Below are positions 37,392 to 51,686 of a stretch of DNA of 53,983 bases, in pieces (position 1 is the stretch's first letter; the number at the start of each line of letters is the position of its first letter). Both the position numbers and the translations under genes were made by a program. The DNA is from Candidatus Hydrogenedentota bacterium (GTDB lineage Bacteria > Hydrogenedentota > Hydrogenedentia > Hydrogenedentales > JAEUWI01): the NCBI GenBank assembly GCA_034669905.1, contig JAXMOL010000051.1, forward strand, positions 1 through 53,983, written 5' to 3'. The notes under the pieces are model-generated. The model did no database searches. It was not told where the DNA came from and saw only the letters and a program-made list of their open reading frames with translations.

Positions 37392-38714
37392 TCAGGAAAG
37401 GGTGTAGGGCGCGCGATAGTCGCGGGTCAACCACGCTTTCTCACCGCTGCGCCAGGCGAAACGCATCCGCTTGGGTTTCCACTTAATGGTTTCATGGTTG
37501 TAATAAGCCTGGTTCAAGAGGTGGCAGCAGATGGCGCTCCGGCCACCCACGATTTCATTCGTGATGGGCTTCTTGCGGCTTTCGATGCACTCCAGGAAAT
37601 CCTTGATGTGGTGACGGCTTTCATAGAGCTTGATCTTCGCGTTGGCGAGATACTCTTTCTGCACGTGGACAATCGTGGAAGCAAGTGAACCGCCTTTGCC
37701 CTGAATCTGCTTACCGTCGCGCCAGAATTCGAATTTCCCGCGGTTAACTTTGACTTCGCCTTCGTCGCCGAAGAAGTGCACGCCGAATCCGCCCTTGTGA
37801 ATGACTTCGACGCCATTCTTATAGGTCATGACCGCGCCTTCCACCGCATTGGGATCATCGGGGGGCGTGATGAGTTTCGGACCGCTGTCGTCCATGCCGA
37901 GGCCCCACTGGGCGATATCGAGGTGGTGGGCACCCCAGTCACAGACCATGCCGCCGCCATACTCTTTGTAGGTACGCCAGTTGGGAAAGTGGTCGTGCAC
38001 GCCACGGGGACTCAGCACCGAGTTATAGGGGCGCATGGGGCCGGGGCCAATCCAACGCTCCCAATCGAGACCGGGTTCCATTTCCTCTTCGGGCAGGTCG
38101 CAGGGAACTCCGGGAGGGCCGAAGCTGCACTCCACCCGGCTGATTTTACCGGCCGCGCCGTTCTGCACCAGTTCACAGGCCACGCGAAACTCTTCCATAG
38201 AGCGCTGCATGGATCCGGTCTGCAACACGGCCTTGTTGTCTTTGACCGCGTCTATAATTTCGACGGCTTCGTTAATATTGTGGGTCAACGGTTTTTCGCA
38301 ATAGACATCGATACCCGCGTTCAAGGCCGCGAGGATGGGAATGGCGTGCCAGTGATCGGGCGTGGCGATACAGACCGCATCAATATCGCCCCGGTCGATC
38401 AGCTCCTGAAAGTCGACGTATGCCGCGCATTCGGCCGAGCCCATTTCCGGCTTGGCGGTGTAGAATTCGTTGACCCGTTGCTGGGCGTGGGTGCGACGCG
38501 TCGTATCCACATCGCAGACCGCCACGACCCGGACCACGGGCTGCTGGAGGAAACTGCCCAACAGGTGGTAGCTCTGCTTGCCCATGCCGATAAAACCCAT
38601 GGTGATCTTGTCACTGGGATTCACATCCGCCGCCCAAACTTTCGACGGCAAGATAAAGGGCGCAGCCGACAAGACGGAGGCGGCCTTCAAAAATGTTCTG
38701 CGATTGGTCTTCAT
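37392..38714 (-). CDS. Tat-exported Gfo/Idh/MocA oxidoreductase
   Basis: NRRTFLK Tat motif, IATPDHWH, YCEKP, DWGAHHLD. Confidence 0.92.
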   Translation of the reverse strand: MKTNRRTFLKAASVLSAAPFILPSKVWAADVNPSDKITMGFIGMGKQSYHLLGSFLQQPVVRVVAVCDVDTTRRTHAQQRVNEFYTAKPEMGSAECAAYVDFQELIDRGDIDAVCIATPDHWHAIPILAALNAGIDVYCEKPLTHNINEAVEIIDAVKDNKAVLQTGSMQRSMEEFRVACELVQNGAAGKISRVECSFGPPGVPCDLPEEEMEPGLDWERWIGPGPMRPYNSVLSPRGVHDHFPNWRTYKEYGGGMVCDWGAHHLDIAQWGLGMDDSGPKLITPPDDPNAVEGAVMTYKNGVEVIHKGGFGVHFFGDEGEVKVNRGKFEFWRDGKQIQGKGGSLASTIVHVQKEYLANAKIKLYESRHHIKDFLECIESRKKPITNEIVGGRSAICCHLLNQAYYNHETIKWKPKRMRFAWRSGEKAWLTRDYRAPYTLS

Positions 38715-38919
38715 AAAACAGCTCCTGGTTCATACGTAGCGTTAGAATATGATCGTGGAAGTATTCTATAAAGCGGTCCCGGATAACAAGTGAAAATAAC
38801 GCTGGATAGGAGAATCCCGCCGTGATGGCGGGAATGCGACACCCAAAGCTCGGGACACCGGTCCAAGAGGAGGTCAGTCAGGCCCCCTTCGTAAACCTGA
38901 GAACCGAGAAGGAAAACCC

Positions 38920-39846
38920 ATGCAGAATTTATGGTGTCCCCGCGCAGCCACGTTGATGACGTTCCTCGCCCTCTTCATCTTCGCGCCACAGAGTATGGCC
39001 GGCATTGAATCTCTTGTTGTCCCCTACACCGCCACAGAAGATGTGGTCTACGGGCAGAAAGAGGGCATGGGCCTGACCCTCGATGTGTTACAACCCAAAG
39101 AAAATCGCAAGGGCGTGGGTATCGTGCTCGTATCCAGTGGCAGCTGGCGCTCGGGCAAATCCAATATTGCGGCGGAAGTGGAAGAGAAGCGGAAAGACCA
39201 CTGGGGCATGGGACTGCTCCACCATGGCTTTACGGTCTTCGTCGTGCGCCATGGCACGAGTCCCCGCTTTACGGTGCCGGAAATCATTGAAGACATCCGG
39301 CGCTCCGTCCGCTTTGTGCGGCACCACGCGGCGGACTATCAGATTGCCCCGAAGCACATCGGCATCACCAGTGGCTCTTCGGGCGGACACCTATCCCTCA
39401 TGGTCGGCATGACGGGAGATGACGGGGACCCCGACGCGACGGACCCGGTGTTGCGCGAAAGCAGCCGTACCCAGGCCATTGTCGCGTGGTTTCCACCCAC
39501 CGACCTCATCAATTGGGGTGCGACGGATGGCTACAAGGTGATCGAATCCGTGCGGCCTGGCATGTTCCAACGGATGTTTGGGAGCATCGACGATTTACCG
39601 GCCCAACTCAAATCCATATCGCCCCTCTATTTCACCACCCCGGACGACCCGCCGCTTTTGCTGATACATGGAGACAGCGACACGACGGTCCCGCTCCAGC
39701 AATCAGAGGCGCTTAAGGAGCAATACGAAGCGGCGGGCCTTAAGGTCAAACTTATCGTGGAGCCCGGTGGGGGCCACACCTACTGGGACGGCATCGAAGA
39801 AGACTACGTCGCGGTGGGTAGTTGGTTTGACACCTGGCTCAAGTAA
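38920..39846 (+). CDS. Exported alpha/beta hydrolase (esterase)
   Basis: GSSGGH nucleophile elbow, HGDSDTTVP, GGGH. Confidence 0.88.
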   Translation: MQNLWCPRAATLMTFLALFIFAPQSMAGIESLVVPYTATEDVVYGQKEGMGLTLDVLQPKENRKGVGIVLVSSGSWRSGKSNIAAEVEEKRKDHWGMGLLHHGFTVFVVRHGTSPRFTVPEIIEDIRRSVRFVRHHAADYQIAPKHIGITSGSSGGHLSLMVGMTGDDGDPDATDPVLRESSRTQAIVAWFPPTDLINWGATDGYKVIESVRPGMFQRMFGSIDDLPAQLKSISPLYFTTPDDPPLLLIHGDSDTTVPLQQSEALKEQYEAAGLKVKLIVEPGGGHTYWDGIEEDYVAVGSWFDTWLK

Positions 39847-39907
39847 GACACGCCCCGAAGGGAACGGGAGGTCTAAATCGTAGTTGAAGGCGTTTCTATC
39901 ACTATTC

Positions 39908-40122
39908 TTGGGCCGGACTTTCAGTCCTTATTTTGGATAACTTTGATTTCCTGGGGCTTCGCCCCAGTCTGGTATATTTCGCGCCATTGGCGCTATGGAA
40001 GCAGACCCGATTGCACAGCGGATAACTCTTGTAGGGCCAACGGCCCGGAAGCATATCAGCATGGGGCAACGCCCCATGTTTTTGGAGCACTGGATTCTCT
40101 AAGGGCTGAAAGCCCGTTCCAT
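39908..40122. repeat. REP/REPIN-like element B (two inverted three-hairpin arms, no tandem amplification)
   Basis: GGACTTTCAGTCC, CTGGGGCTTCGCCCCAG, GCGCCATTGGCGC ... GGGCCAACGGCCC, CATGGGGCAACGCCCCATG, GGGCTGAAAGCCC; same architecture as element A in opposite orientation. Confidence 0.85.
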
Positions 40123-40221
40123 CCCGTAGGCAGAAACATTGACTTATAGGGGCGATGCGGTTTTCCCCTGTTGAATGGGCTGCGCCATGCAATTAACAAC
40201 CGCCTTGATTCGCTCCGTCCG

Positions 40222-40875
40222 CTACCCTTCTTCGGTGAGCTCTTTGATTTTGGCGTTGCGATACCAGACCCGCTTGGCTTCATCCTGAAAACCAATGTGG
40301 CCTTCCAGGGGACGATCTTTCATGGCACCCTCATCGAGCTGGATGTCGATGATCTGCTCACCATTCAAGACGACCGTGAGATGATTGCCCCTGCAGGTGA
40401 TGACGTAGCGGTTCCACTCGCCCGCAGGCTTGGCCATGTTCTTCGTGGGACCTGCCGTACGGATGACGCCGCCGCAGTCGTGGTGCCCGGGGTTTTCCAG
40501 GCCATGGGTATCGAGTATTTGCACTTCGATGCCCGTGTCCACGGGCAGCAAGGGATCGCCCACGCGAAAGAAGACGCCCGAGTTGCCTTCCTTAAGAATC
40601 TTGAATTCGATATCGATGACAAAGTCTTTGTACTTCCGCTCTGACATGATGTAGGCATCAAAGCGCTGCCAGCCGTGTTCACCCGGTCGGGGATGGAGGG
40701 TGAGGATGTTATCCTCCTCAATAACCCAATTACCGGTGGTCTTCCAGCCCGTCAGGTCCTTCCCATTGAAGAGGGGCACGAAGCCGTCGTCGTTCTTCGC
40801 AGCGGTATCGGCATGGGCCAACCCGGTCATCACAAAACAAAGCACAGCGAGAAAACAACTCATAACGTGTCGCAT
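40222..40875 (-). CDS. DUF1080 (3-keto-glycoside hydrolase/lyase family) exported protein
   Basis: AGGAG RBS; signal peptide; LFNGKDLTGW, GNSGVFFR, EVQILD, GEWN, GHIGFQD..VWYRN. Confidence 0.92.
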   Translation of the reverse strand: MRHVMSCFLAVLCFVMTGLAHADTAAKNDDGFVPLFNGKDLTGWKTTGNWVIEEDNILTLHPRPGEHGWQRFDAYIMSERKYKDFVIDIEFKILKEGNSGVFFRVGDPLLPVDTGIEVQILDTHGLENPGHHDCGGVIRTAGPTKNMAKPAGEWNRYVITCRGNHLTVVLNGEQIIDIQLDEGAMKDRPLEGHIGFQDEAKRVWYRNAKIKELTEEG

Positions 40876-40906
40876 GAAATGTACTCCTGGACCGACTTGG
40901 GCCCTG

Positions 40907-41986
40907 TTATGCTGCCGGGTCCCAAATGGTGGCGGAGATATACCGCTCTTCCTGGTCCGGGTGGTGAAAATAATAAATCGTGACACACTTGCCGTCGGGC
41001 CGTTGGACGGTGCGGGGATAGCCAATATCCCAACTGGCCCCATCGGCCCGAAGGATACGTTCCTTGCTCCAGGTCTGGCCGTTGTCTTCCGAAATGCGGG
41101 CGCGGATGCCAAAGGGGGCACTCCGCCACCCGTAGGCGAGGGCCAGATCGCCATTGGCCAATCGGTTCAGGGTTGCCGGGTTGCCCGCATTCTCGATGCG
41201 GGGATTTTCCAGCAGATACCAGGATTTCCCATCGTCGGGTGAAAGATAGGGCTCGACCCACCAGGATTTCTGGCCGTCGAATTTCCCACCCCGGCGAATG
41301 AAGCTCAGATAATTATCCCCGCCCAGGCGAATAGTGGCGGGCATAATGGCGTAGCCGTAGTCGGCGGGTGGCTCCGGGCCTATCCATCCCACGAGCTGCC
41401 AGGTGAGTCCGCCGTCTTCGGTGCGGATACAGAGGGGTTGCCCTTCATCGCCCCCGGTTTTCTGGGCGGCGATAAAGGCGGTGACCCGCTTGGGGCCCTC
41501 GACAATATAGTCCGTTCGGGCAAGAAGGCCGGGGCGGTCGAAGTCCGGTAAGGGATAGGGGCCGACCCAGGTCTTTCCGCGGTTCTGCGAGATAAACCAG
41601 TTGCCGCCCCGAAAATTCAGGGCCACGCCCTCGGCCTGGAAATTATAGGCCGCCGGAGGCACGTCCCCCTCCGGTGCTTCTACCGTGCGCGTCTCGATTT
41701 GCCAGGTTTCGCCCCCATCCATACTGCGGGCAAGGATATCGTCGGCTTTCTTCTCCCGATCGATGTCATGGCTTCCGCCGGGATCTTCTTTGTAGTAGCC
41801 GTGAACAATCCCCACCAGGATTTCATTGCCCCAGCTCCAGATGCCCCGGTTGGCCGGCCAGGCGGAGAAGCGCCCCGACTCTTTGATAAGGGTAACGTGT
41901 TTCTCTACGGACGGGTGCTCTTGCGCATGGACCGCCACGCTGAGCAGGGCACACAAGACCATTCCGGTTCCATATCGCATCATCAT
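40907..41986 (-). CDS. Exported BNR/Asp-box (sialidase-fold) protein
   Basis: Five Asp boxes: SMDGGETW, SQNRGKTW, TEDGGLTW, SPDDGKSW, SEDNGQTW; C-terminal GYP. Confidence 0.85.
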   Translation of the reverse strand: MMMRYGTGMVLCALLSVAVHAQEHPSVEKHVTLIKESGRFSAWPANRGIWSWGNEILVGIVHGYYKEDPGGSHDIDREKKADDILARSMDGGETWQIETRTVEAPEGDVPPAAYNFQAEGVALNFRGGNWFISQNRGKTWVGPYPLPDFDRPGLLARTDYIVEGPKRVTAFIAAQKTGGDEGQPLCIRTEDGGLTWQLVGWIGPEPPADYGYAIMPATIRLGGDNYLSFIRRGGKFDGQKSWWVEPYLSPDDGKSWYLLENPRIENAGNPATLNRLANGDLALAYGWRSAPFGIRARISEDNGQTWSKERILRADGASWDIGYPRTVQRPDGKCVTIYYFHHPDQEERYISATIWDPAA

Positions 41987-42076
41987 AGGATTCCTTTCGG
42001 TCGTCCGTTTGGATTCTGGCGATGTCGTCGACAACAGCCTCCCATCATACCCAATCGACACGGCATCCTGTCCAAC

Positions 42077-42113
42077 AAAAAATCCCCCGAATCGAATGAA
42101 CGACCCGGGGGGA
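42077..42113 (-). terminator. Intrinsic terminator
   Basis: TCCCCCG..CGGGGGGA stem with an A-run on the plus strand. Confidence 0.6.
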
Positions 42114-42136
42114 GGAAAAGGGAAATGTGCGCGTGC

Positions 42137-44170
42137 CTAGTTCAGGAAGCCATGATAGCGGGCCATCCAATAGGGCAGGAGATAGAAGGTGCCTTCGTGC
42201 TCGGTCCAGCCATTACCCTCCGCGTTGTCGAGCTTATAGGCATCCCGGTCCTGGCGGACGTGGGCCCGCTCGTCAATGGGCAGGGCTTTGCGATCCACCC
42301 GCGACCACCCCGCGTTGTTGCCGGCGAGCGGTGTGGGGTCCAGCTCCACATCCAGACGATGGGTGTTTTCCATCTTCCAGCCCAGCAGATAGATGGGCAT
42401 GCGCTGGAGGGTTTCCAGGGAGTCGGCCTCGGCCGCGTCGTAGGTCGAGAAACGCTTCACATAGTGGGGCGTATAGGGTCCTGCTTCGGGGTAGGCGCCG
42501 TCGAAATAGCCTTTTTTTGCCTCTTTTATGAAACGCTCGGCACCGGCGGCGTAGATATAGTTCCACAGCGAATTCTTCTGCTTGCTGCTGAACTGCCACA
42601 GGTCTTCCAGACTCTGGCGATAGAGGAGCAACAACTCCGGGTCATTCTCATAGTTCATCAGGCCGTAGAAACTGAGAAGGGCCAGGTTGTTATCCCAGGG
42701 CACCACGTTTCCCGGGGGGAAGGTGGGACGGGGGACCATGGCGTTGATGTGGTAGTGGTGTTCCTCGCGCAACATGGCGGCGACTTCGCCATAGTGCTCG
42801 TCGCCCGTGACGTGCTCGGCCACGCTGAGGAAGGAGAGCATCATCATGGAGTTGAGTCCCACCTGCGCCCAGCCATAGGGCGTGTAGAGGGCATCGGGAC
42901 CAAACCAGGCCCAACGGGTGGGCGTGCCGTCGTGATCGACCAGGGCGAAGTCATTGCGGATGAGGTGGTCGGTAATGTCGCGCACCACGTCTTGCGCCGC
43001 TTTTTTCTCGGCGTCGGTCTTGGCCACCAGGTCGTAGTAGATGGCATAGAAGAAATAGTGACCGGCCAACTCATCGGAGCTGGTGTCATTTTTCCACATA
43101 TACTTGCCATCTTCGCTCAAGGGAAAGCGGGGCGTAATCTGTTTCCAGAAGGCATCGCCTTTCTGTTTCTTGGCGTTGTATTCCGCATCGTATTGTTCAT
43201 TGACCGGGTCTTTCCAATCCGCAGGAATCAGCACGCGGGCCGGAAAGCCTTTCATCGACTCGGGCACGATGTCGACGAGGCGCTTGCAGGCGATAAAACT
43301 CCGTTCGGCCAGTTCGCGGGCCTGCGCGTCACCCGTGGCCGCGTATTTGAAGGCCATGGCCGCGCCGTACATGGCGGTATAGAGCCCGTCGTTGTCCGTA
43401 ATCTGTGGGACCGCCGTCGAGATATCCCCCTGCACTTCCAAATCCCAGTTGGTGATATAGCCATCCCGATTGTGACGGGCCTCCACCTGGGCTATGAAGA
43501 AATCGGACTTGTCTTCAAGGGTCCAATTGGCGCGCTTGATAAAGCTGACGCCTGTCTTGGTCTTAATCCAGGCGGAACCATCTTTTTCCACCACAATCCC
43601 CGACACTTCGTCATCGAGCAGCCAACGGCGTCCCGCGCGGTAGTTCCACGTCGTGCCATCGAAGCGAATCGCACCGCGCTCCGTGCCGAACCACACGGCA
43701 CCGTTTTCACCGGCGGCAGAGCAGGTGAAGTTTTTGTAGGGCAGGCCCTCGGCGCCCGTATAGAGGGCCCACTTCGTACCATCCCACACGCCGACCCCAT
43801 TGTCCGCACCAAACCAGAGGCGTCCCTGGCTGTCGTACACCACCGTGGCGACCTGGCGGGGGGCCCAGGAATACCGTTCATCGGCTGGATAGACCGGTGC
43901 ATAACCGGAACCATCCTCGGCGAGAAGATAGAGTCCCCGCTCGGTGCCGACGGCGGAGATGAGCTCGCTGCCGGGCTTGGCGGCTACTGCGAGCGTCGCA
44001 CCGGCACCTTCGATCTGCACATCCGGCTCGGAGGTCGGAAAAGCGACGGAGTCGGGCAGCTCGCTGGCCGAGGGGTAGAAAGACGGGTCTTCCTGGGCGA
44101 ACGGGGTGCTCACCACGTCCAGGGCCTGGGTGACCGTGGCCATGGTGAGCAGGGTAAGGGATAATAACAT
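42137..44170 (-). CDS. Exported protein: regulator-type beta-propeller repeats plus a helical C-terminal domain, function unknown
   Basis: AGGAG RBS; DSQGRLWFG, ENGAVWFGT, EKDGSAWI repeats; DNDGLYT and DTSSDE motifs. Confidence 0.75.
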   Translation of the reverse strand: MLLSLTLLTMATVTQALDVVSTPFAQEDPSFYPSASELPDSVAFPTSEPDVQIEGAGATLAVAAKPGSELISAVGTERGLYLLAEDGSGYAPVYPADERYSWAPRQVATVVYDSQGRLWFGADNGVGVWDGTKWALYTGAEGLPYKNFTCSAAGENGAVWFGTERGAIRFDGTTWNYRAGRRWLLDDEVSGIVVEKDGSAWIKTKTGVSFIKRANWTLEDKSDFFIAQVEARHNRDGYITNWDLEVQGDISTAVPQITDNDGLYTAMYGAAMAFKYAATGDAQARELAERSFIACKRLVDIVPESMKGFPARVLIPADWKDPVNEQYDAEYNAKKQKGDAFWKQITPRFPLSEDGKYMWKNDTSSDELAGHYFFYAIYYDLVAKTDAEKKAAQDVVRDITDHLIRNDFALVDHDGTPTRWAWFGPDALYTPYGWAQVGLNSMMMLSFLSVAEHVTGDEHYGEVAAMLREEHHYHINAMVPRPTFPPGNVVPWDNNLALLSFYGLMNYENDPELLLLYRQSLEDLWQFSSKQKNSLWNYIYAAGAERFIKEAKKGYFDGAYPEAGPYTPHYVKRFSTYDAAEADSLETLQRMPIYLLGWKMENTHRLDVELDPTPLAGNNAGWSRVDRKALPIDERAHVRQDRDAYKLDNAEGNGWTEHEGTFYLLPYWMARYHGFLN

Positions 44171-44470
44171 GTTTTAATTCTCCTGGTACTGCGATAAGGG
44201 TGGCCGGATTGAATCCGCCGGCCTTCGGCGACGTGTGTGGTGTCACGAAGATGCCACCGATGAACGGCGACCGATTTTGCATACACCGGTAGCCGGGGGC
44301 TATCTCCAAGGGAGACATGTACTTGTCCGAACGCGTCGACAGACCAAAGCGACGCTGGCGGGCACCTGGGAAGGCCAAGGTGCAAAATTGTTTACATGCC
44401 TGCGTCTATCATCCCTTTTTGGGCAGAGAATTGCAACCCACGGGCAATTCACGCTCGCCCCATTCTGAAG

Positions 44471-45988
44471 CTATTCGGCAAGAAAGGCGAAGAGATCGGC
44501 CTTTTCGAAGACGAACTCCAACCGCACAAGCTTTCCTTCCAACCCGGCCATCGTGCCTTCTTCCCAGGTTACTTTGTGGCGAATGGCATCGGCTTTCAGG
44601 GGCACGCAAGCCTCCCACGTGAGTCCGTTCAACACCTTCCGATCCAGGTCGGTGACCCGTACCTTCATGGAACCATCGGTCGCATCGGCGTTGATGACCA
44701 AATTCCCCCCGGGCCAGACCAGGGGCCGGGTGATGACATAGCTTTTTTGCCCCGTGGGATCGGACTGAATTCCGACAAAACGTTCTTTCCCGAATTTCAC
44801 GAGGCCCAACTGACCCGTACGGTTTTTCTCGTTGTGGTAGCCATCATAGGCTGAATAATAAACCCACCACTCGTCCCCCACTTCAATGACCCGATCGCAG
44901 GCGAAGGTCATGCCGTCATCCCAGGTACCTGCTTCCCCCACGGGGATCATCCGGGGACGGGAAGGCAGCCGTTCCCAATCGAAGCCATCACGACTGAAAG
45001 CCAGTTCCACTTCGATGAGTTCCGGGTCCTCATTGTACTGCTCGAGGAAACCCCAATAGACGCCGCCCTCTTTGAAAACGGGCATGTTATAAAAGCGCCC
45101 CTTATCGGCTTCGTCGGGTAACAGTACGGTCGTGGGCATTCCGTCCCACAGGGACCACAGATCGGCACTCGCAATGCGGGCCATCATCCGGGTATTCCCC
45201 CGCAACAGCGGATCTTTGGAATCGTGGTAGATGAGTTTGTTCCGGTAAAACATGCAGTATTCGTTGCGCACATCGTCATGCACGAGGGTCATGAAGCAAT
45301 CCACCCGATTGGGGATGAGCTTCTCCTGCCGCAGGGCCCAGTTGTATCCGTCTTGCGAGGTAGCGAGATAATGGCCGCTGTCACAGTAGTACATGAGGTA
45401 GGGATTTCCCCGCAACGCTTCTTTGGGCAGCATCCCCAGATTGCGCACCGGCGTACCATTTTCCATCGTACCCGCCGTCTCGGCAAGATGGACGGTCGGG
45501 GCCTTGGCTTCTTTCTCTCCCACCGCGAGGATGTTGGACGCCTTACCCTCAAAGGGCACGAAATCGAAGAGGGGCTTTTCCCAGTGTATCCCGTCGGCCG
45601 ACTCCGCGTAGCAGGTGGTGTACGTGGGGAGACCACCCACCGTGTCTTTCGGGTTCCAGACCTGATAATACAATCGAAAGCGTTTGATGGCAGGGTCGAA
45701 TACCATGGAGATATAGCCCACCCCCGCAGCCTGCTCCCAGGGCTTATCGACGTCGGGGCCCATCAGCGGGGTGGCGATTCGCTCGCCAGGGAAAAAGCGC
45801 TGCGTCACCTTGGCGGATATGGAATCTTCGTTGAAGCGGTTGTCTACGAAGTAATCGTCCACAAAAAACTGGGCCTGCCCCACAGGAAAGGTACGCACCA
45901 GACTACCCCGTGCGTCGGGGTGACTGTCCGCCCCATCGGCACCCAACAGTGCCCCGACTACCATCACTACGCACATTGAAATAGACAT
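44471..45988 (-). CDS. Exported glycoside-hydrolase-like propeller protein, similar in type to 33032-34537
   Basis: GAGGAG RBS; SADGIHWEKP, SQDGYNW, SRDGFDW; ITRPL..NLVINADA C-terminal pattern. Confidence 0.72.
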   Translation of the reverse strand: MSISMCVVMVVGALLGADGADSHPDARGSLVRTFPVGQAQFFVDDYFVDNRFNEDSISAKVTQRFFPGERIATPLMGPDVDKPWEQAAGVGYISMVFDPAIKRFRLYYQVWNPKDTVGGLPTYTTCYAESADGIHWEKPLFDFVPFEGKASNILAVGEKEAKAPTVHLAETAGTMENGTPVRNLGMLPKEALRGNPYLMYYCDSGHYLATSQDGYNWALRQEKLIPNRVDCFMTLVHDDVRNEYCMFYRNKLIYHDSKDPLLRGNTRMMARIASADLWSLWDGMPTTVLLPDEADKGRFYNMPVFKEGGVYWGFLEQYNEDPELIEVELAFSRDGFDWERLPSRPRMIPVGEAGTWDDGMTFACDRVIEVGDEWWVYYSAYDGYHNEKNRTGQLGLVKFGKERFVGIQSDPTGQKSYVITRPLVWPGGNLVINADATDGSMKVRVTDLDRKVLNGLTWEACVPLKADAIRHKVTWEEGTMAGLEGKLVRLEFVFEKADLFAFLAE

Positions 45989-46240: not shown

Positions 46241-46412
46241 CGCCTTTGGGTGAGATTAAACCACTGCATACTCAGCGCAGTGGAATGGACTTGGCACGCT
46301 GTATCTTCGACCAATAGGTTTCTGAACCAACAGCAACACAAAAAGGATAGGCACGCAAAGGCGCTAAGACGCAAAGAAGAAAACTCCCCGACCAATGGCG
46401 CCCTATGTCCAC
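46241..46412. repeat. Downstream copy of the ~170-bp diverged direct repeat flanking the GxxExxY gene
   Basis: Aligns ungapped with 46857 onward (offset 616): 100 of 137 positions identical by hand count. Confidence 0.88.
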
Positions 46413-46420
46413 TCTCCGAA

Positions 46421-46804
46421 TTATTCTTCCAATCCGTTCACGATTCGAAAAATCCCATCCTTCATTCGTTCGGCCCCAAAATTCAACAGCAGGCCCAGAC
46501 GCTTATCCATCAGGCGTGCATAGGTCAGTGTCTGCTTCTTATGCACTGGAACGATATGCTCCACGGACTTCAACTCCAGTACCAGCAAGTCTTCGACAAT
46601 GACATCCGCCCGAAATCCCTCGTCAAATTTCAGCCCATCATATTCAATGGGAACGGGCACTTGCCGCTTCGTTCGAATCCCCCGTTTCTTTAACTCGTGG
46701 CACAACACGACTTCATAAATTGATTCCATCAATCCCGGCCCAAGTGCCACGTGAATCTTGTACGATCCATCCACAACCGCCGTTGCCAGTGAGTTTTCCG
46801 TCAT
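46421..46804 (-). CDS. GxxExxY protein (PD-(D/E)XK-like nuclease fold)
   Basis: LGPGLMESIYE signature; FRADVIVEDLLVLELKS; QTLTY..GLLLNFG; GAGG/AGGA RBS. Confidence 0.95.
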   Translation of the reverse strand: MTENSLATAVVDGSYKIHVALGPGLMESIYEVVLCHELKKRGIRTKRQVPVPIEYDGLKFDEGFRADVIVEDLLVLELKSVEHIVPVHKKQTLTYARLMDKRLGLLLNFGAERMKDGIFRIVNGLEE

Positions 46805-47030: not shown

Positions 47031-48302
47031 CTACTCCGGCAGTTCCGGCGGGGTCTCGATAACGGTGGTCTCCCGTCCGTCCCGAATTTTCTCAATTCGC
47101 CATTCGGCCTTCTCCACCGCCTCGTTGCCTTCGTGTATACCGAAGTCGAGGGTAAAGCTGCGGGTCTCCCCGGGCGCCAGTTTGGGAACACGCCCGAAGG
47201 CCCGTTCCACACGGCGGTTAAAGGGATAGCTCATGGCGGGTTCAATACCGGTGACATAGCCATCCGCTTCGGCCACCGTGTTTTTCCACAGGGCGAGATA
47301 GGGCAATTCGGCGATGTTCCAATGGATGGAAGCTGCCCGGGTTCCGGCACGGTTTTTCAATAGCGCACCACACTGGCCGTTCTTATCCGACCAGGGCTCC
47401 ATCAAGTACACTTCCTCAATAAAACCCGGTGTGGGTCCTTCATAGTGCCGATACCGCGAGAGCCCATTGGCAGCATGGGCGTTCATCGGCATGATTTGTT
47501 TCGCCGCCGTTACAAACTCGGCCCCCGCCTCCAGGAGCGGTGCGCCGAAATTGCCGTGGTAGATCAACTGAAACTCCTGGGGGGCCGCACCATGATTGGT
47601 CACTTCATCGTGGATGCGAAAGGTATCACTGCCGGGCTCGGTGGACACTTCGGTGACGAGTCCAAGTTTCGGCCCGAAGAACAACCGTTCATGGACTACC
47701 CCCCGAATAGTAATGCGGTAGGGGGGCGCCCGCTCGACCAGTACTTCCACCTCCGAAGCGGGGATGTTGCCAATCTTTCCGTGGAGCGTGAGATCCATCT
47801 CTGCAGTATCGCCCGTGTTGGTCGTGAACTGATCCCGGCCCGGATGGCCAGCAAACTCGAGGCCGCAGCGCACCATCCACTCGTTGAAGCCCTCCAGCCA
47901 ACCCAGTCCGCCCCGGCTCTCCAGGTCGATAAACTGGGGATGAACCAGCTCCTTGACGGGCGAATCCCAACCGAGCCGCACGTCGCCTTTGGTCACCTGG
48001 AAGATGCTCATGCCCCGGGTAGGTACCACCACAAGCTGCAACACGCCGTTGTCTAAGGTGATGAGCTCGACCCCCTCTTGCTTTCCACCATGGAGCGTCC
48101 TTTTGCTGAGGCTCCACGGTACGCTGGCCGGGGTGATATCTTCGCTGGAAAGTGATATTCCGTCCGTAGCCCGATTTTCCGCGACACTCGTGATGGTATA
48201 GCGAACAACATCACCCTGCGCCTCCACGGCCCCACTCCACCACAATCCCAGTCCAACGGCGATTCCGAAAATACAATGTTTCATGCCTTGCAACTCCTGC
48301 AT
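47031..48302 (-). CDS. Aldose 1-epimerase family protein (DUF4432), probably exported
   Basis: LHGGKQEGV, PTRGM, TLHGKIGN, YHGNFG, YVTGIEP; signal peptide from alternative start 48284. Confidence 0.85.
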   Translation of the reverse strand: MQELQGMKHCIFGIAVGLGLWWSGAVEAQGDVVRYTITSVAENRATDGISLSSEDITPASVPWSLSKRTLHGGKQEGVELITLDNGVLQLVVVPTRGMSIFQVTKGDVRLGWDSPVKELVHPQFIDLESRGGLGWLEGFNEWMVRCGLEFAGHPGRDQFTTNTGDTAEMDLTLHGKIGNIPASEVEVLVERAPPYRITIRGVVHERLFFGPKLGLVTEVSTEPGSDTFRIHDEVTNHGAAPQEFQLIYHGNFGAPLLEAGAEFVTAAKQIMPMNAHAANGLSRYRHYEGPTPGFIEEVYLMEPWSDKNGQCGALLKNRAGTRAASIHWNIAELPYLALWKNTVAEADGYVTGIEPAMSYPFNRRVERAFGRVPKLAPGETRSFTLDFGIHEGNEAVEKAEWRIEKIRDGRETTVIETPPELPE

Positions 48303-48350
48303 TGTGCTCCGTGGTCAGTCAATCCCCATCGGACGACTTATTCCATTGTG

Positions 48351-49211
48351 TCACTGCGTTCCAAAGACTTCCTCCAAGGCAGCCCGCATAACTCCGGCGT
48401 CGGCATCCACCCCGGTCCAGTATTTGATCCCGATGACCCCTTGGTTCACCAGCATTTCCAGGCCGTCAATGACCTGACAGCCCCGGGCCTCTGCCGCTTT
48501 CACGAGGTTGGTTTTCGGGGGGTTGGGAATCACATCCGCCACCAACATGGATGGGGTTAATGTCTCGACATTCAGGGCCAAACGGGCGTCCACATCGGGG
48601 AACAGGCCAATGGATGTGGCATTGATTACAATATCTGTCCCCTCGGGAATGTTGAAGTCCCCCTCCCAGGGCACAAAGACCGCTTCGGCAGGCACATTCT
48701 CGTTGAGCAGGGCGACCAATTCTTCGCCCCGTTCCACCGTGCGATTCACGATAGTCACGTGCGCCGCGCCTGCGAGGGCCACTTCCACACTGATGGCCCG
48801 GGCCGCGCCACCGGCACCAAAAATGACTACCCGACTCCCTTTGGGGTCGCGCAGCTTCATCAGGCCTTCCACGAATCCTTTGCCGTCGGTGTTTTCGCCG
48901 ATGAGCTTGCCATCACGGCGCACCACACAGTTTACCGCTCCCATCACGGAAGCCGATTCACCAAGGCCGTCCAAATGTTGGATAACGTTTATTTTGTGGG
49001 GGATGGTGCAATTGAAACCCGCAAAGTTCATGGCCCGCACGCCCCGCACCGCGTCGGCCAGTTTTTCTTCCGGCACTTCGATGGTCAGGTAACGCCACTT
49101 CAATCCATGGTGTTTGTAGGCCGCCTCCACCATGACCACGGTGGGGTTCTCCGCGACCGGATTGCCAAAACACGCCGTCAGTTCTTCGAGAAAATTCAAT
49201 GCGTCTGCCAT
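48351..49211 (-). CDS. Shikimate dehydrogenase (AroE) family oxidoreductase with an atypical substrate site
   Basis: NCTIPHK, GAVN, NTDG, GAGGAARA, NRT, GLEMLVNQG; AGGA RBS. Confidence 0.88.
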   Translation of the reverse strand: MADALNFLEELTACFGNPVAENPTVVMVEAAYKHHGLKWRYLTIEVPEEKLADAVRGVRAMNFAGFNCTIPHKINVIQHLDGLGESASVMGAVNCVVRRDGKLIGENTDGKGFVEGLMKLRDPKGSRVVIFGAGGAARAISVEVALAGAAHVTIVNRTVERGEELVALLNENVPAEAVFVPWEGDFNIPEGTDIVINATSIGLFPDVDARLALNVETLTPSMLVADVIPNPPKTNLVKAAEARGCQVIDGLEMLVNQGVIGIKYWTGVDADAGVMRAALEEVFGTQ

Positions 49212-49227
49212 TCGTTTCCTGCTTTCC

Positions 49228-50580
49228 TTAGGCTTTAACGAGACGCTCTTTCAGTTTTTCCAAGAGCACCGCCAGGAGAATAATCCCCCCGAAAACGATG
49301 TATTGGTTGAAAGGCTTCACGTTGGTTAAGTTCATTCCGTTGCGCACCACCCCGATGATGAAGGCGCCAATGAGGGTCCCCAGGATTCGGCCCTGTCCCC
49401 CTGCCAATGACGTGCCCCCCACCACCACGGCGGCAATCACATAGAGTTCATAGAGTTGGCCCGTCTTGGGATCGCCACTCTTCAGTTCCGAGGCCATCAC
49501 AATACCGCCGAGTCCTGCCAGGAGTCCGCAAATGGTATAGACGGCCACCAGGACCCGATTGACAGGTACGCCCGAGAGCCGTGCGGCCTCGAGATTGCCT
49601 CCTACGGCATAGATGTAGCGCCCGAGACGGCTGTAGTTCATGAGCACATAGGCGCCCGCATAAAAAAGCACCATGAGGAGAACCGACAGGGGAAATCCCC
49701 CCACATCCTGATGGCCCAACCACGAAAAGGAATCGGGAAGACTGCCGAGGGCCTGTCCGCCGGTGGCCTTGTAGGCCAGTCCCCGCGCGATCAGCATAAT
49801 CGCGAGGGTCACGATAAAGGCGGGAATCTGAAACACCGTTAACATCACGCCGGAGAACAGTCCGATACAACCACACAGCAGAATCGCGGCACCACAGGCG
49901 CCCACCACGACCCCGAGGCCCACGTCAGCCGGCGTGCCTTCCCCAGCCGCCCAATGAATTAACGCGGCAGCGCTGCAGGCCGACAGGGCGATGAGGCTGC
50001 CCACCGACAGGTCGATGCCCGCCGTAATGATGACCATGGTCATGCCGATAGCGATGAGGGCAATTACCACGATCTGGGTGGCCACGTTGAGCAAGTTACC
50101 CTGGGTCAGGAATACGGGCCATGTCTCTCCCGGCGGGTGGACAAAGGGCACCTCGGCCAGGTCGGGATGTATTTTTGCCAGACTCGCCGACAAAAACACA
50201 TCGCTCCCCGCCGCCTGGGGCCCTGCAATGACCCGGGGAAGGGTCTGGGCATCCACCAGCGCCTCGAGGGAACGGCGCGCATCGGCCGGGGTCCCCTGGG
50301 TTTCCCCCACCACCACACCGCCTTCCGATTCGAGGCGCTGCCGAAAGACCGAAGCAAATTCGGTTCCTTCCGCAGAATCGCGGGTAGCCAGCAGAACGGG
50401 CACACCGGCACCAAAGTCCGCCACGACCTGTTGAGCCAGGGCACGGGCGGCACTGCCGTGTTCCGGATAACCGACGCGAATGGTTGCCATACTGAACCCG
50501 GCACCCAGCGCCAGCAAGACGAAAATCATGCCGTAGTCGAGGGCCAGTTGCTTGTAGCGGGCTGGAGCAAGTCGTGACAT
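49228..50580 (-). CDS. Sugar ABC permease (RbsC-like) with an inserted extracytoplasmic domain
   Basis: GIDLSVGS, IPAFIVTL, GRYIYAVGGN.EAARLSG, YEL.VIAAVVVGGTSL.GG.G. Confidence 0.9.
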   Translation of the reverse strand: MSRLAPARYKQLALDYGMIFVLLALGAGFSMATIRVGYPEHGSAARALAQQVVADFGAGVPVLLATRDSAEGTEFASVFRQRLESEGGVVVGETQGTPADARRSLEALVDAQTLPRVIAGPQAAGSDVFLSASLAKIHPDLAEVPFVHPPGETWPVFLTQGNLLNVATQIVVIALIAIGMTMVIITAGIDLSVGSLIALSACSAAALIHWAAGEGTPADVGLGVVVGACGAAILLCGCIGLFSGVMLTVFQIPAFIVTLAIMLIARGLAYKATGGQALGSLPDSFSWLGHQDVGGFPLSVLLMVLFYAGAYVLMNYSRLGRYIYAVGGNLEAARLSGVPVNRVLVAVYTICGLLAGLGGIVMASELKSGDPKTGQLYELYVIAAVVVGGTSLAGGQGRILGTLIGAFIIGVVRNGMNLTNVKPFNQYIVFGGIILLAVLLEKLKERLVKA

Positions 50581-50599
50581 GGTGTGCACAGCCTTCCAC

Positions 50600-51583
50600 T
50601 TACTGGAGCGAAGGATCGGCCTGCCCATCCGCCTGGCGATAGAGCTCCGCGGGGATAAGACGTACGGGCTCAAAGGCCTCCCCCGCAAAGTACTGGGTAA
50701 TCATCTCGACGATTTCCTTACCCATCCGGTCGGGAAACTGTATGGGGTCGGCGTATATCTTGCCCTCTTTGATCGCCTGCTTCCCATCGGGCTGCCCATC
50801 GAAACCGATGATCTTTACCTGCTCCGACTTCCCTGCTTTCTCCAGGGCCGCCAGGGCCCCGAGGGCGCCGGGGTCATTGATAGCAAAGAGTCCCGCCAGA
50901 TTGGGGTGGGCGGTAATAATATCCTGGGTCGCCTTGAAACCAGGGTCCCGCTGTCCGTCACACGGCAGGCGTTTCACCACCGTGATCTTGCCCGACGCAC
51001 GGCCCTCGTTGTAGGCATTAATAACGTCATCGAAACCCGCCACCCGCTTCACGCAGGAAGCCGCGGGATCGTGGGTCAGAATAGCGATCTCGCCGCCCCC
51101 TTCACCCAGCGCCTCTATCATCGCCTCGCCGGCAAGACGACCACCCTGGTAGTTGTCGGTGGCGATGTGTCCGGCAATCTTAACGCCTTCTGCCGTACAT
51201 TCCAGGTCACAGGTGAAGACAGGAATTCCGGCCGCATTGGCTTCTTCGATGGCGGCACCAATGGCCTCCGAGTCGGCCGGATTGAGCACGATCGCATCCA
51301 CCTTACTCACGACGAAGTCTCGAATCTGGTCCATCTGCTTCGTTACATCGGCGTCGGCACTCACCGTACGCACTTCGTAGTTGTGCGCTATCGCCGCCGC
51401 CTTAATGTTTTCCGCGATCACTTCAAAGAAGGGATTGTTGGAGTTCATCTTGGAATAGCCGATGACTTTGGCGGGCGCCGTGTTCCCATCGCCCTCGCCC
51501 ACCCGCTCCGTTTCTCCGCTACCACACCCCACCACACCCACTATCAGCAGGGCACTCGCCAACCCACACAGAAACCGATTCAT
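50600..51583 (-). CDS. Sugar ABC substrate-binding lipoprotein (RbsB-like)
   Basis: Lipobox VVGC; NPFF, DNYQGG, NDPGALGA, IIGFDG. Confidence 0.92.
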   Translation of the reverse strand: MNRFLCGLASALLIVGVVGCGSGETERVGEGDGNTAPAKVIGYSKMNSNNPFFEVIAENIKAAAIAHNYEVRTVSADADVTKQMDQIRDFVVSKVDAIVLNPADSEAIGAAIEEANAAGIPVFTCDLECTAEGVKIAGHIATDNYQGGRLAGEAMIEALGEGGGEIAILTHDPAASCVKRVAGFDDVINAYNEGRASGKITVVKRLPCDGQRDPGFKATQDIITAHPNLAGLFAINDPGALGALAALEKAGKSEQVKIIGFDGQPDGKQAIKEGKIYADPIQFPDRMGKEIVEMITQYFAGEAFEPVRLIPAELYRQADGQADPSLQ

Positions 51584-51686
51584 AGCGCTCTCCTTTTGCT
51601 ACGGTGCGCACACCGATGCGATTGCTCTCTCAGTCATCCAGTATACGCATTGGCACCTGGATTGTTAACCCTGCACGCAACCTGGG

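Follow-up and report, generated by a model that had tools for sequence, protein, structure and literature searches.

A four-gene operon of a Hydrogenedentota bacterium with a 5-ketofructose-reductase-type protein and a probable role in ketohexose uptake and salvage

Gene content of the operon

The window analysed here, i.e., the whole stretch of 53,983 nucleotides (positions 1 to 53,983 of contig JAXMOL010000051.1, assembly GCA_034669905.1) from a Candidatus Hydrogenedentota bacterium, carries on its minus strand, at 47031-51583, four co-oriented open reading frames (ORFs). In the order of transcription, they encode an RbsB-like substrate-binding protein (SBP), an RbsC-like permease, a protein with the fold of the shikimate dehydrogenase AroE, and a DUF4432 protein (Table 1). 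Their intergenic gaps amount to only 19, 16, and 48 bp, bearing out the co-oriented, tightly spaced operon proposed in the initial annotation, and a purine-rich, Shine-Dalgarno-like stretch precedes each of the four starts. With 59.2%, the GC content of the operon is close to the genome mean of 59.0%. Neither an ATPase nor a regulator gene is among its ORFs. A scan of the region for promoters and terminators stayed at chance level, and the sigma-70-like site upstream of the SBP gene is weak evidence of an operon promoter, because four such sites were found where 3.6 were expected.

Relationship of the AroE-fold protein to 5-ketofructose reductase

The translation of the third gene holds the motifs GNPVAENPT, TIPHK, GAVN, NTDG, GAGGAA, NRT, DVIPNP, and LVNQG, just as they had been read initially. 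At the Ser, Ser, and Tyr positions of shikimate dehydrogenases, which we take to be Ser14, Ser16, and Tyr215 in the numbering of E. coli AroE, the protein displays Asn22, Thr24, and Pro229; the earlier statement that both serines and the tyrosine are replaced holds, with the refinement that the exchange of the second serine for threonine is conservative. Present as well are Asn67, Lys73, Asn94, Asp109, and Gln257, together with the sequence N156-R157-x-x-x-R161, which, judging from AroE structures, is presumably a cofactor motif of the NADP(H) type.

Among the 40 matched sequences of the Protein Data Bank (PDB), the top match was 5-ketofructose reductase (KFR; 7COK/7COL) with an E-value of 1.2e-96 and 327 bits, followed by a shikimate dehydrogenase with 186 bits; a clade member from Azotobacter gave a similar picture (332 bits for KFR, 182 for the next match). 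Identity to 7COK covers 154 of 280 aligned residues, or about 55%, as counted by eye from the alignment midline. The solved reductase carries the same altered motifs, ADNPT and DVIPNP, the latter hexapeptide being identical in the alignment, and its Asn21, Lys72, and Asp108 pair with Asn22, Lys73, and Asp109 of our protein. The pocket residues agree except for Glu/Asp21 and Thr/Ser69. Moreover, 7COK agrees with the clade described below at 26 of 30 diagnostic columns, some of which are lineage-specific, as the comparison set consisted mostly of AroE proteins from the phylum of our genome. Nguyen et al. (2021, J Bacteriol) reportedly found that Asn21 matters for the binding of 5-keto-D-fructose (5-KF) and that Lys72 and Asp108 are catalytic.

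A reductase of Tatumella morbirosei related to shikimate dehydrogenase (TM-KFR) reduced, among the tested compounds, only 5-KF, used NADPH only, had a Km of 6.4 mM for 5-KF, yielded D-fructose, and did not attack the tested polyols (PMC7954740). The same source describes a putative shikimate dehydrogenase of Clostridium, 48% similar to TM-KFR, as inactive (PMC7954740), so that family likeness alone is insufficient for assigning KFR function.

The relatives separate clearly. Matches to the protein were abundant, with at least 7954 of 8000 scored candidates found at an E-value of 1e-60. Removal of duplicates from 134 matches in fetched loci left 127 sequences, of which 108 are 59-100% identical to the query and 19 are canonical AroE proteins with 33-38% identity, none falling in between. 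All 108 clade members share Asn22, Pro23, Lys73, Asp109, Asn230, Gln257, and Gly258. At position 24, 98 of them have Thr and 10 have Ser; at position 229, 98 have Pro and eight have His, and none has Tyr. N156 and R157 were likewise found throughout and R161 in 103 of the 108. Since Ser-x-Ser and Tyr are kept in 19/19 canonical AroE sequences while Asn22 is invariant in the clade, chance drift does not account for the substitutions. A quick tree, computed without 7COK, placed the KFR-type clade apart from canonical AroE with an SH-aLRT support of 100.

A canonical aroE is present elsewhere in the genome of the window: contig C12 encodes a second AroE-family protein with 35% identity and the shikimate-binding residues in GHSLSP and DMVYRP. 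Genome G007 also has both types, and in G016 the canonical gene is cut by the end of a contig.

Hence, the AroE-like protein is likely a member of the already described class of 5-ketofructose reductases and not the founder of a new family. The earlier proposal of an active NADP(H) enzyme for a non-shikimate, possibly uncharged substrate is supported in this respect: the enzyme is intact in its motifs, likely acts on an uncharged sugar other than shikimate, and probably works in the direction of reduction.

Gene neighbourhoods of the relatives

Neighbourhoods were counted in the best 80 of 579 genome loci, 41 of them with full flanks. An SBP or permease gene of the CUT2 type lies within 5 kb in 29 of the 80 (13/41 with full flanks); the orthologous SBP was found in 18, the DUF4432 ortholog in 13, and the long permease in 12 of the 80 loci. 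The linkage to sugar ABC genes anticipated by the initial annotation, thus, exists in a substantial minority of the homologs but not in the majority. Recurrent copies of the cassette were found in Opitutales and Planctomycetes, in most cases together with an ATPase and often with an IclR regulator. Of 250 Planctomycetota genomes, 19 carry the reductase; 12 of these also have the SBP and 14 have DUF4432, compared with an expectation of 1.4-1.6 and bearing in mind that kin are not independent.

Several enzyme genes next to clade members point to ketohexoses. On a plasmid of Rhizobium gallicum, a host outside the acetic acid bacteria, a three-subunit fructose dehydrogenase is encoded 95 bp from the KFR homolog, its large subunit matching the solved enzyme 7W2J with 1064 bits. 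Fructose dehydrogenase is the enzyme that forms 5-KF (PMC8601194). Locus L040 displays a gene for an NADPH-dependent L-sorbose reductase (440 bits to 3AI1) 35 bp upstream, as well as a sorbitol dehydrogenase (343 bits). Genes of PfkB kinases adjoin full cassettes in G016, G1013, and G1181, the reductase gene in Afifella (L044), and the transporter in G1076; the top PDB match of the G016 kinase is labelled fructokinase. Directly downstream in eight closely related loci is a TIM-barrel gene whose best PDB matches, weak with an E-value of about 1e-13, are tagatose/psicose 3-epimerases. Two genomes without the reductase combine the same transporter with a class II fructose-bisphosphate aldolase and a TIM-barrel, epimerase-like gene, one of them also with a pyrophosphate-dependent phosphofructokinase (PPi-PFK), and an RbsD/FucU mutarotase is among the neighbours in Leeia.

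In 4/4 alphaproteobacterial plasmid matches, a co-oriented GMC oxidoreductase gene is located just upstream of the KFR-type gene, and a divergent AraC regulator is annotated in three of these units. Such a pair may form fructose in two steps, an oxidation followed by a reduction, with 5-KF as the intermediate.

A family scan of 138 proteins, including 132 chosen among the 409 neighbours of the 80 loci, revealed no recurrent inositol-pathway gene; the proteins not mentioned above were unrelated or generic, and a Gfo/Idh/MocA gene and a ribulokinase gene turned up once each. Neighbouring DUF1501, DUF1553, sulfatase, and PQQ_2 genes were disregarded, being generic in Planctomycetes and Verrucomicrobia. 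The informative enzyme neighbours are, by their assigned families, mostly related to ketohexoses and not to cyclitols. A xylose-isomerase-like TIM-barrel family, weakly similar to tagatose/psicose 3-epimerases, accompanies the reductase in some loci and the same transporter in others, with 53% identity between the groups (Table 1).

Binding protein, permease, and DUF4432 protein

The SBP remained under every NCBIfam cut-off (best for RbsB, 161 vs. 337), and a PDB search with it returned no close solved homolog. It is 48-54% identical to its orthologs in cassettes of Planctomycetota and Verrucomicrobiota, and its ligand is likely a ketohexose. A plasmid search with the SBP at 1e-30 gave no match.

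Due to an extra domain, the permease is about 130 amino acids longer than RbsC. Its orthologs are homologous over the full length at 45-95% identity, and the domain was seen in all 14 aligned orthologs, a set chosen for having it. AlphaFold2 modelled residues 39-152 as an alpha/beta domain with a mean pLDDT of 79, which VIA-align superimposed on residues 103-235 of 2GX6 (Z 12.7, root-mean-square deviation 2.5 Å, 110 residues). Foldseek returned weak E-values of 0.02-0.1, Pfam gave no family match for residues 39-152, and the ESM Atlas yielded unnamed clusters only (0.79-0.81), a lead at most. The domain is, therefore, predicted to fold like one lobe of the ribose-binding protein. Possible roles are docking of the SBP or pairing across a permease dimer; a complex prediction of the SBP with the lobe scored 0.00, which counts neither way.

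The DUF4432 protein matches PDB entry 3TY1 with an E-value of 3e-96 and has, as read from the sequence by eye, a signal-peptide-like N-terminus. His168, His243, and Glu348 are invariant in 7/7 aligned sequences and may correspond to the catalytic residues of GalM. We consider the protein a likely exported enzyme for sugar ring opening or anomerisation. Plasmid matches of DUF4432 comprise 68 records, mostly from Pantoea.

A candidate ATPase for the transporter

The genome of the window encodes seven CUT2 permease ORFs and three RbsA-type ATPases, and four permease loci, on C1, C19, C27, and in the operon, have no adjacent ATPase. One of the ATPases, of the two-domain RbsA type, stands alone on C1 after UvrD-like and chorismate mutase-like genes. 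In six further genomes of the phylum, no CUT2 gene was located within 1.5 kb of its ortholog; a contig end cuts one of these loci. It is 42-55% identical to cassette ATPases (at least 50% in 4/6) and 47% identical to the C8 ATPase, and is, thus, closer to most of the cassette ATPases. The SBP-permease pair is without an ATPase gene in all eight loci examined within the phylum, which has 11 SBP-positive genomes. A stand-alone ATPase accompanied by four CUT2 loci without one suggests sharing, and the transporter of the operon likely borrows the C1 protein as an ATPase common to several CUT2 importers. According to a paper of 2020, shared ATPases had been reported for CUT1 systems only (PMC7658222). 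Apart from this, contig C52 contains an open frame of about 830 amino acids in which an RbsA-type ATPase is fused to a CUT2 permease, and similar frames were seen in G003, G004, G007, and G008.

Distribution

At an E-value threshold of 1e-70, and leaving out the centre genome of the sampling, which had been chosen for having the gene, a KFR-type gene was detected in 19 of 250 Planctomycetota, 1 of 400 Alphaproteobacteria, and 0 of 399 Gammaproteobacteria (one more was not scored). By these counts, Planctomycetota carry the clade far more often than either proteobacterial class does. Within the phylum Hydrogenedentota, 3/135 genomes have the gene, here including ours. Sequencing runs with at least one fifth of the operon's words came from plastic-biofilm, sediment, estuary, and marine metagenomes of four studies, which may include the source sample; no RNA run was among the listed runs carrying the stretch. 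Three Planctomycetota genomes (G1009, G1034, and G1166) were seen to possess two KFR-type paralogs each, one of the G1009 copies lying between housekeeping-looking genes.

Proposed function and evidence against it

Based on these comparisons, it is reasonably probable that the operon serves the uptake of 5-KF or a close ketohexose and its one-step salvage to D-fructose. The CUT2 binding protein and permease would import 5-KF or a closely related ketohexose, powered by the RbsA-type ATPase on C1, and the exported DUF4432 protein would speed the interconversion of ring or hydrate forms near the transporter. Inside the cell, the AroE-fold enzyme would reduce 5-KF with NADPH to D-fructose, with Asn22 holding sugar hydroxyls at the place where AroE binds the carboxylate and the Lys73/Asp109 dyad catalysing hydride transfer as in AroE. 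The fructose could then enter glycolysis via PfkB kinases, PPi-PFK, and class II aldolase; the genome has two PfkB kinases 45-53% identical to that of G016, a PPi-PFK, and a class II aldolase. Since the operon encodes a single catabolic enzyme without any pathway to follow it, the product itself presumably belongs to central metabolism, in line with a conversion of 5-KF to D-fructose. As a further observation, contig C43 carries in a row the genes of a PfkB kinase, of a protein resembling membrane transporters, and of a protein resembling mannitol dehydrogenase (family assigned by eye), a likely entry route for fructose and mannitol.

A number of findings weigh against this proposal. No CUT2 gene is located within 5 kb in 51/80 loci, nor in 28/41 with full flanks, and the assignments of the neighbouring epimerases and kinases lie under curated cut-offs. 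With two queries, no homolog of fructose dehydrogenase or of the GMC oxidoreductase was found in the genome, so that 5-KF would have to come from outside, and the carrier metagenomes represent marine, estuary, sediment, and plastic-biofilm samples and not the fruit or vinegar habitats of known 5-KF. As identity is 55% to 7COK compared with 59-75% to its own clade, the substrate may have drifted. The SBP occurs without the reductase in 7/19 Planctomycetota and 8/11 SBP-positive genomes of the phylum, which makes 5-KF unlikely as the sole ligand; the SBP likely binds more than one ketohexose. Finally, in G016 (820 contigs), which has the operon, no two-domain RbsA ATPase was found.

One alternative is KFR-like chemistry on another natural keto-sugar in marine PVC and Hydrogenedentota bacteria, e.g., a 2,5-diulose from the periplasmic oxidation of algal sugars, giving a ketose for a 3-epimerase or a kinase. 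The habitat, which lacks known 5-KF producers, the genome, in which no 5-KF-forming enzyme was found, and the limited identity to 7COK would all suit it, as would the 3-epimerase-like neighbour in eight related loci and the GMC partner of the four plasmid matches. We nevertheless regard it as rather unlikely, since the pocket equals that of 7COK apart from two positions, one of which, Ser69, recurs in 38/108 clade members, since the Tatumella enzyme is narrowly specific among the tested compounds, and since fructose dehydrogenase and sorbose reductase are directly adjacent inside the same clade.

A transporter mainly for D-fructose, or broadly for ketohexoses, with the reductase as a dispensable accessory for the repair or scavenging of oxidised fructose imported along with it, seems to us improbable. 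It would explain why several genomes have the transporter without the reductase, among them G004 of the same genus with SBP and permease only, and why the transporter stands beside aldolase, phosphofructokinase, PfkB, or epimerase genes. The strong co-occurrence and the recurrent fixed cassette with the reductase (orthologous SBP in 18/80 loci) argue otherwise; this alternative is largely compatible with 5-KF salvage and differs only in the main ligand.

The polyol or cyclitol dehydrogenase opening a new catabolic pathway, as envisaged in the initial annotation, did not withstand the comparison and is very improbable. Loss of the carboxylate-binding residues, the resemblance of cyclitols to shikimate, and the sorbitol dehydrogenase in one locus could be quoted in its favour, but the closest relative with a characterised function, of the KFR class, reduces a ketohexose, the Tatumella enzyme is described as inactive on the tested polyols and active, among the tested compounds, on 5-KF only, the neighbourhoods point to ketohexoses without any recurrent inositol-pathway gene among the 138 scanned proteins, and the cassette encodes no catabolic enzymes for subsequent steps. 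An ordinary or redundant shikimate/quinate dehydrogenase is hardly credible: the protein exceeds the TIGR00507 aroE cut-off (232.5 vs. 200.2), which is why sources label its homologs shikimate dehydrogenase, but the equivalents of Ser14 and Tyr215 are replaced in 108/108 sequences, a canonical aroE is present, and occurrence within the phylum is patchy (3/135 genomes).

The proposed uptake and salvage of 5-KF can be extended to a broader and doubtful picture, in which 5-KF would be an overlooked compound of marine and sediment food webs, and Planctomycetes, Verrucomicrobia, and a few Hydrogenedentota would use the first dedicated ABC importer for it, with a half-binding-protein permease and, in the phylum of our genome, one ATPase shared by several CUT2 transporters.

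Feature coordinates and surroundings of the operon

Directly downstream of the operon is a PDDEXK_3 gene in a stretch of lower GC content (52%), with short sequences that resemble each other on its two sides, near 46350 and 46970; the stretch may be a small element bounded by repeats. Further downstream follows a run of exported-looking sugar enzymes, including Gfo/Idh/MocA with a twin-arginine (Tat)-like start, DUF1080, and BNR proteins, together with two further genes without an assigned enzyme family; this run is not linked to the operon in G016. Its DUF1080 and Gfo/Idh/MocA genes lie 6-10 kb downstream and were judged to be outside the operon.

Table 1. Coordinates of the operon, its surroundings, and related features. 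Plain positions refer to the window; C, contigs of the same genome; L, loci; G in the text, other genomes.
Feature	Position	Strand	Basis or remark
CUT2 RbsB-like SBP, lipoprotein-type N-terminus	50600-51583	-	PF13407, E 2e-56
RbsC-like permease, 450 amino acids	49228-50580	-	PF02653 over residues 162-438; ATG at 50580, mechanical ORF start 50688
Permease extra domain, residues 39-152, after first helix	50125-50466	-	Predicted fold of ribose-binding-protein C-terminal lobe
KFR-type protein with shikimate dehydrogenase fold	48351-49211	-	Top PDB match 7COK/7COL, clade conservation, tree
DUF4432 protein, aldose-1-epimerase (mutarotase) fold	47031-48302	-	PF14486, E 1e-104; alternative start 48284
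Sigma-70-like site, possible operon promoter	51640-51668	-	10/12 matches; 57 bp upstream of SBP start
PDDEXK_3 gene	46421-46804	-	Directly downstream of operon
Run of exported-looking sugar enzymes	37392-45988	-	Downstream
Stand-alone two-domain RbsA-type ATPase	C1:177137-178648 (L108:9138-10649)		After UvrD-like and chorismate mutase-like genes
RbsA-type ATPase fused to CUT2 permease	C52:13018-15501		Open frame
PfkB kinase, transporter-like, and mannitol-dehydrogenase-like genes	C43:7274-11742		In a row
GMC + KFR-type two-gene unit	L104:8428-10840		Plasmid
GMC + KFR-type two-gene unit	L105:8416-10837		Plasmid
GMC + KFR-type two-gene unit	L106:8476-10843		Plasmid
GMC + KFR-type two-gene unit	L107:8471-10843		Plasmid
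Three-subunit fructose dehydrogenase	L105:10911-14680		Rhizobium gallicum plasmid
Xylose-isomerase-like TIM-barrel family	L203:5628-6449		
Xylose-isomerase-like TIM-barrel family	L204:10931-11797		
Xylose-isomerase-like TIM-barrel family	L034:8919-9743		

Significance and comparison with known systems

A literature search of main texts, with most subscription journals outside it, returned no report of the operon, the permease lobe, or the ecology of the clade, and the literature passages covered make no mention of how 5-KF enters cells. The Planctomycetota-centred distribution, the lobed permease, and the ATPase-less operon with a stand-alone RbsA-type ATPase go beyond the published work found. 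The results correct a systematic annotation: proteins of the clade score above the aroE cut-off and bear the name shikimate dehydrogenase, although they likely reduce 5-KF. This sugar, for which the operon names a testable candidate importer, is formed by acetic acid bacteria and is of interest as a possible sweetener. The Planctomycetota-rich distribution asks where oxidised fructose arises in the sea and in sediments. For transporter biology, there are two separate points open to testing, namely the permease with half a binding protein and the CUT2 ATPase that is likely shared.

In comparison with KFR (EC 1.1.1.124; 7COK/7COL), the protein shares the fold, about 55% of its residues, the motifs [DE]NPT and DVIPNP, the Lys/Asp dyad, and the NADP-type motif; in our case, however, it comes from a marine/sediment lineage, no fructose dehydrogenase was detected in the genome, and the gene is part of an ABC transporter/mutarotase operon. 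The link of TM-KFR to this family follows the description in PMC7954740 and not a sequence comparison of our own. AroE and YdiB are similar in fold, catalytic Lys and Asp, pocket Asn and Gln, and Rossmann motif, but show 33-38% identity, differ by the replacements of Ser14 by Asn, Ser16 by Thr, and Tyr215 by Pro, and form a separate clade.

The RbsB-like SBP and RbsC-like permease resemble those of CUT2 importers such as RbsABC, beside which we put FrcABC as a presumably comparable CUT2 monosaccharide importer; unlike these, the system has no ATPase in the operon, carries a predicted half binding-protein lobe on the permease, and stays under all NCBIfam equivalog cut-offs. As in the case of the multitask ATPases MsmX and MsmK of CUT1 systems (PMC7658222), a stand-alone ATPase gene coexists with several sugar importer loci without an ATPase, but here the ATPase is of the two-domain RbsA type, the importers are CUT2, and sharing is inferred from the genome pattern. 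Finally, the hypothetical aldose 1-epimerase 3TY1 of Klebsiella (DUF4432) is homologous to our protein over the full length, whereas here the protein is tied to a ketofructose cassette.

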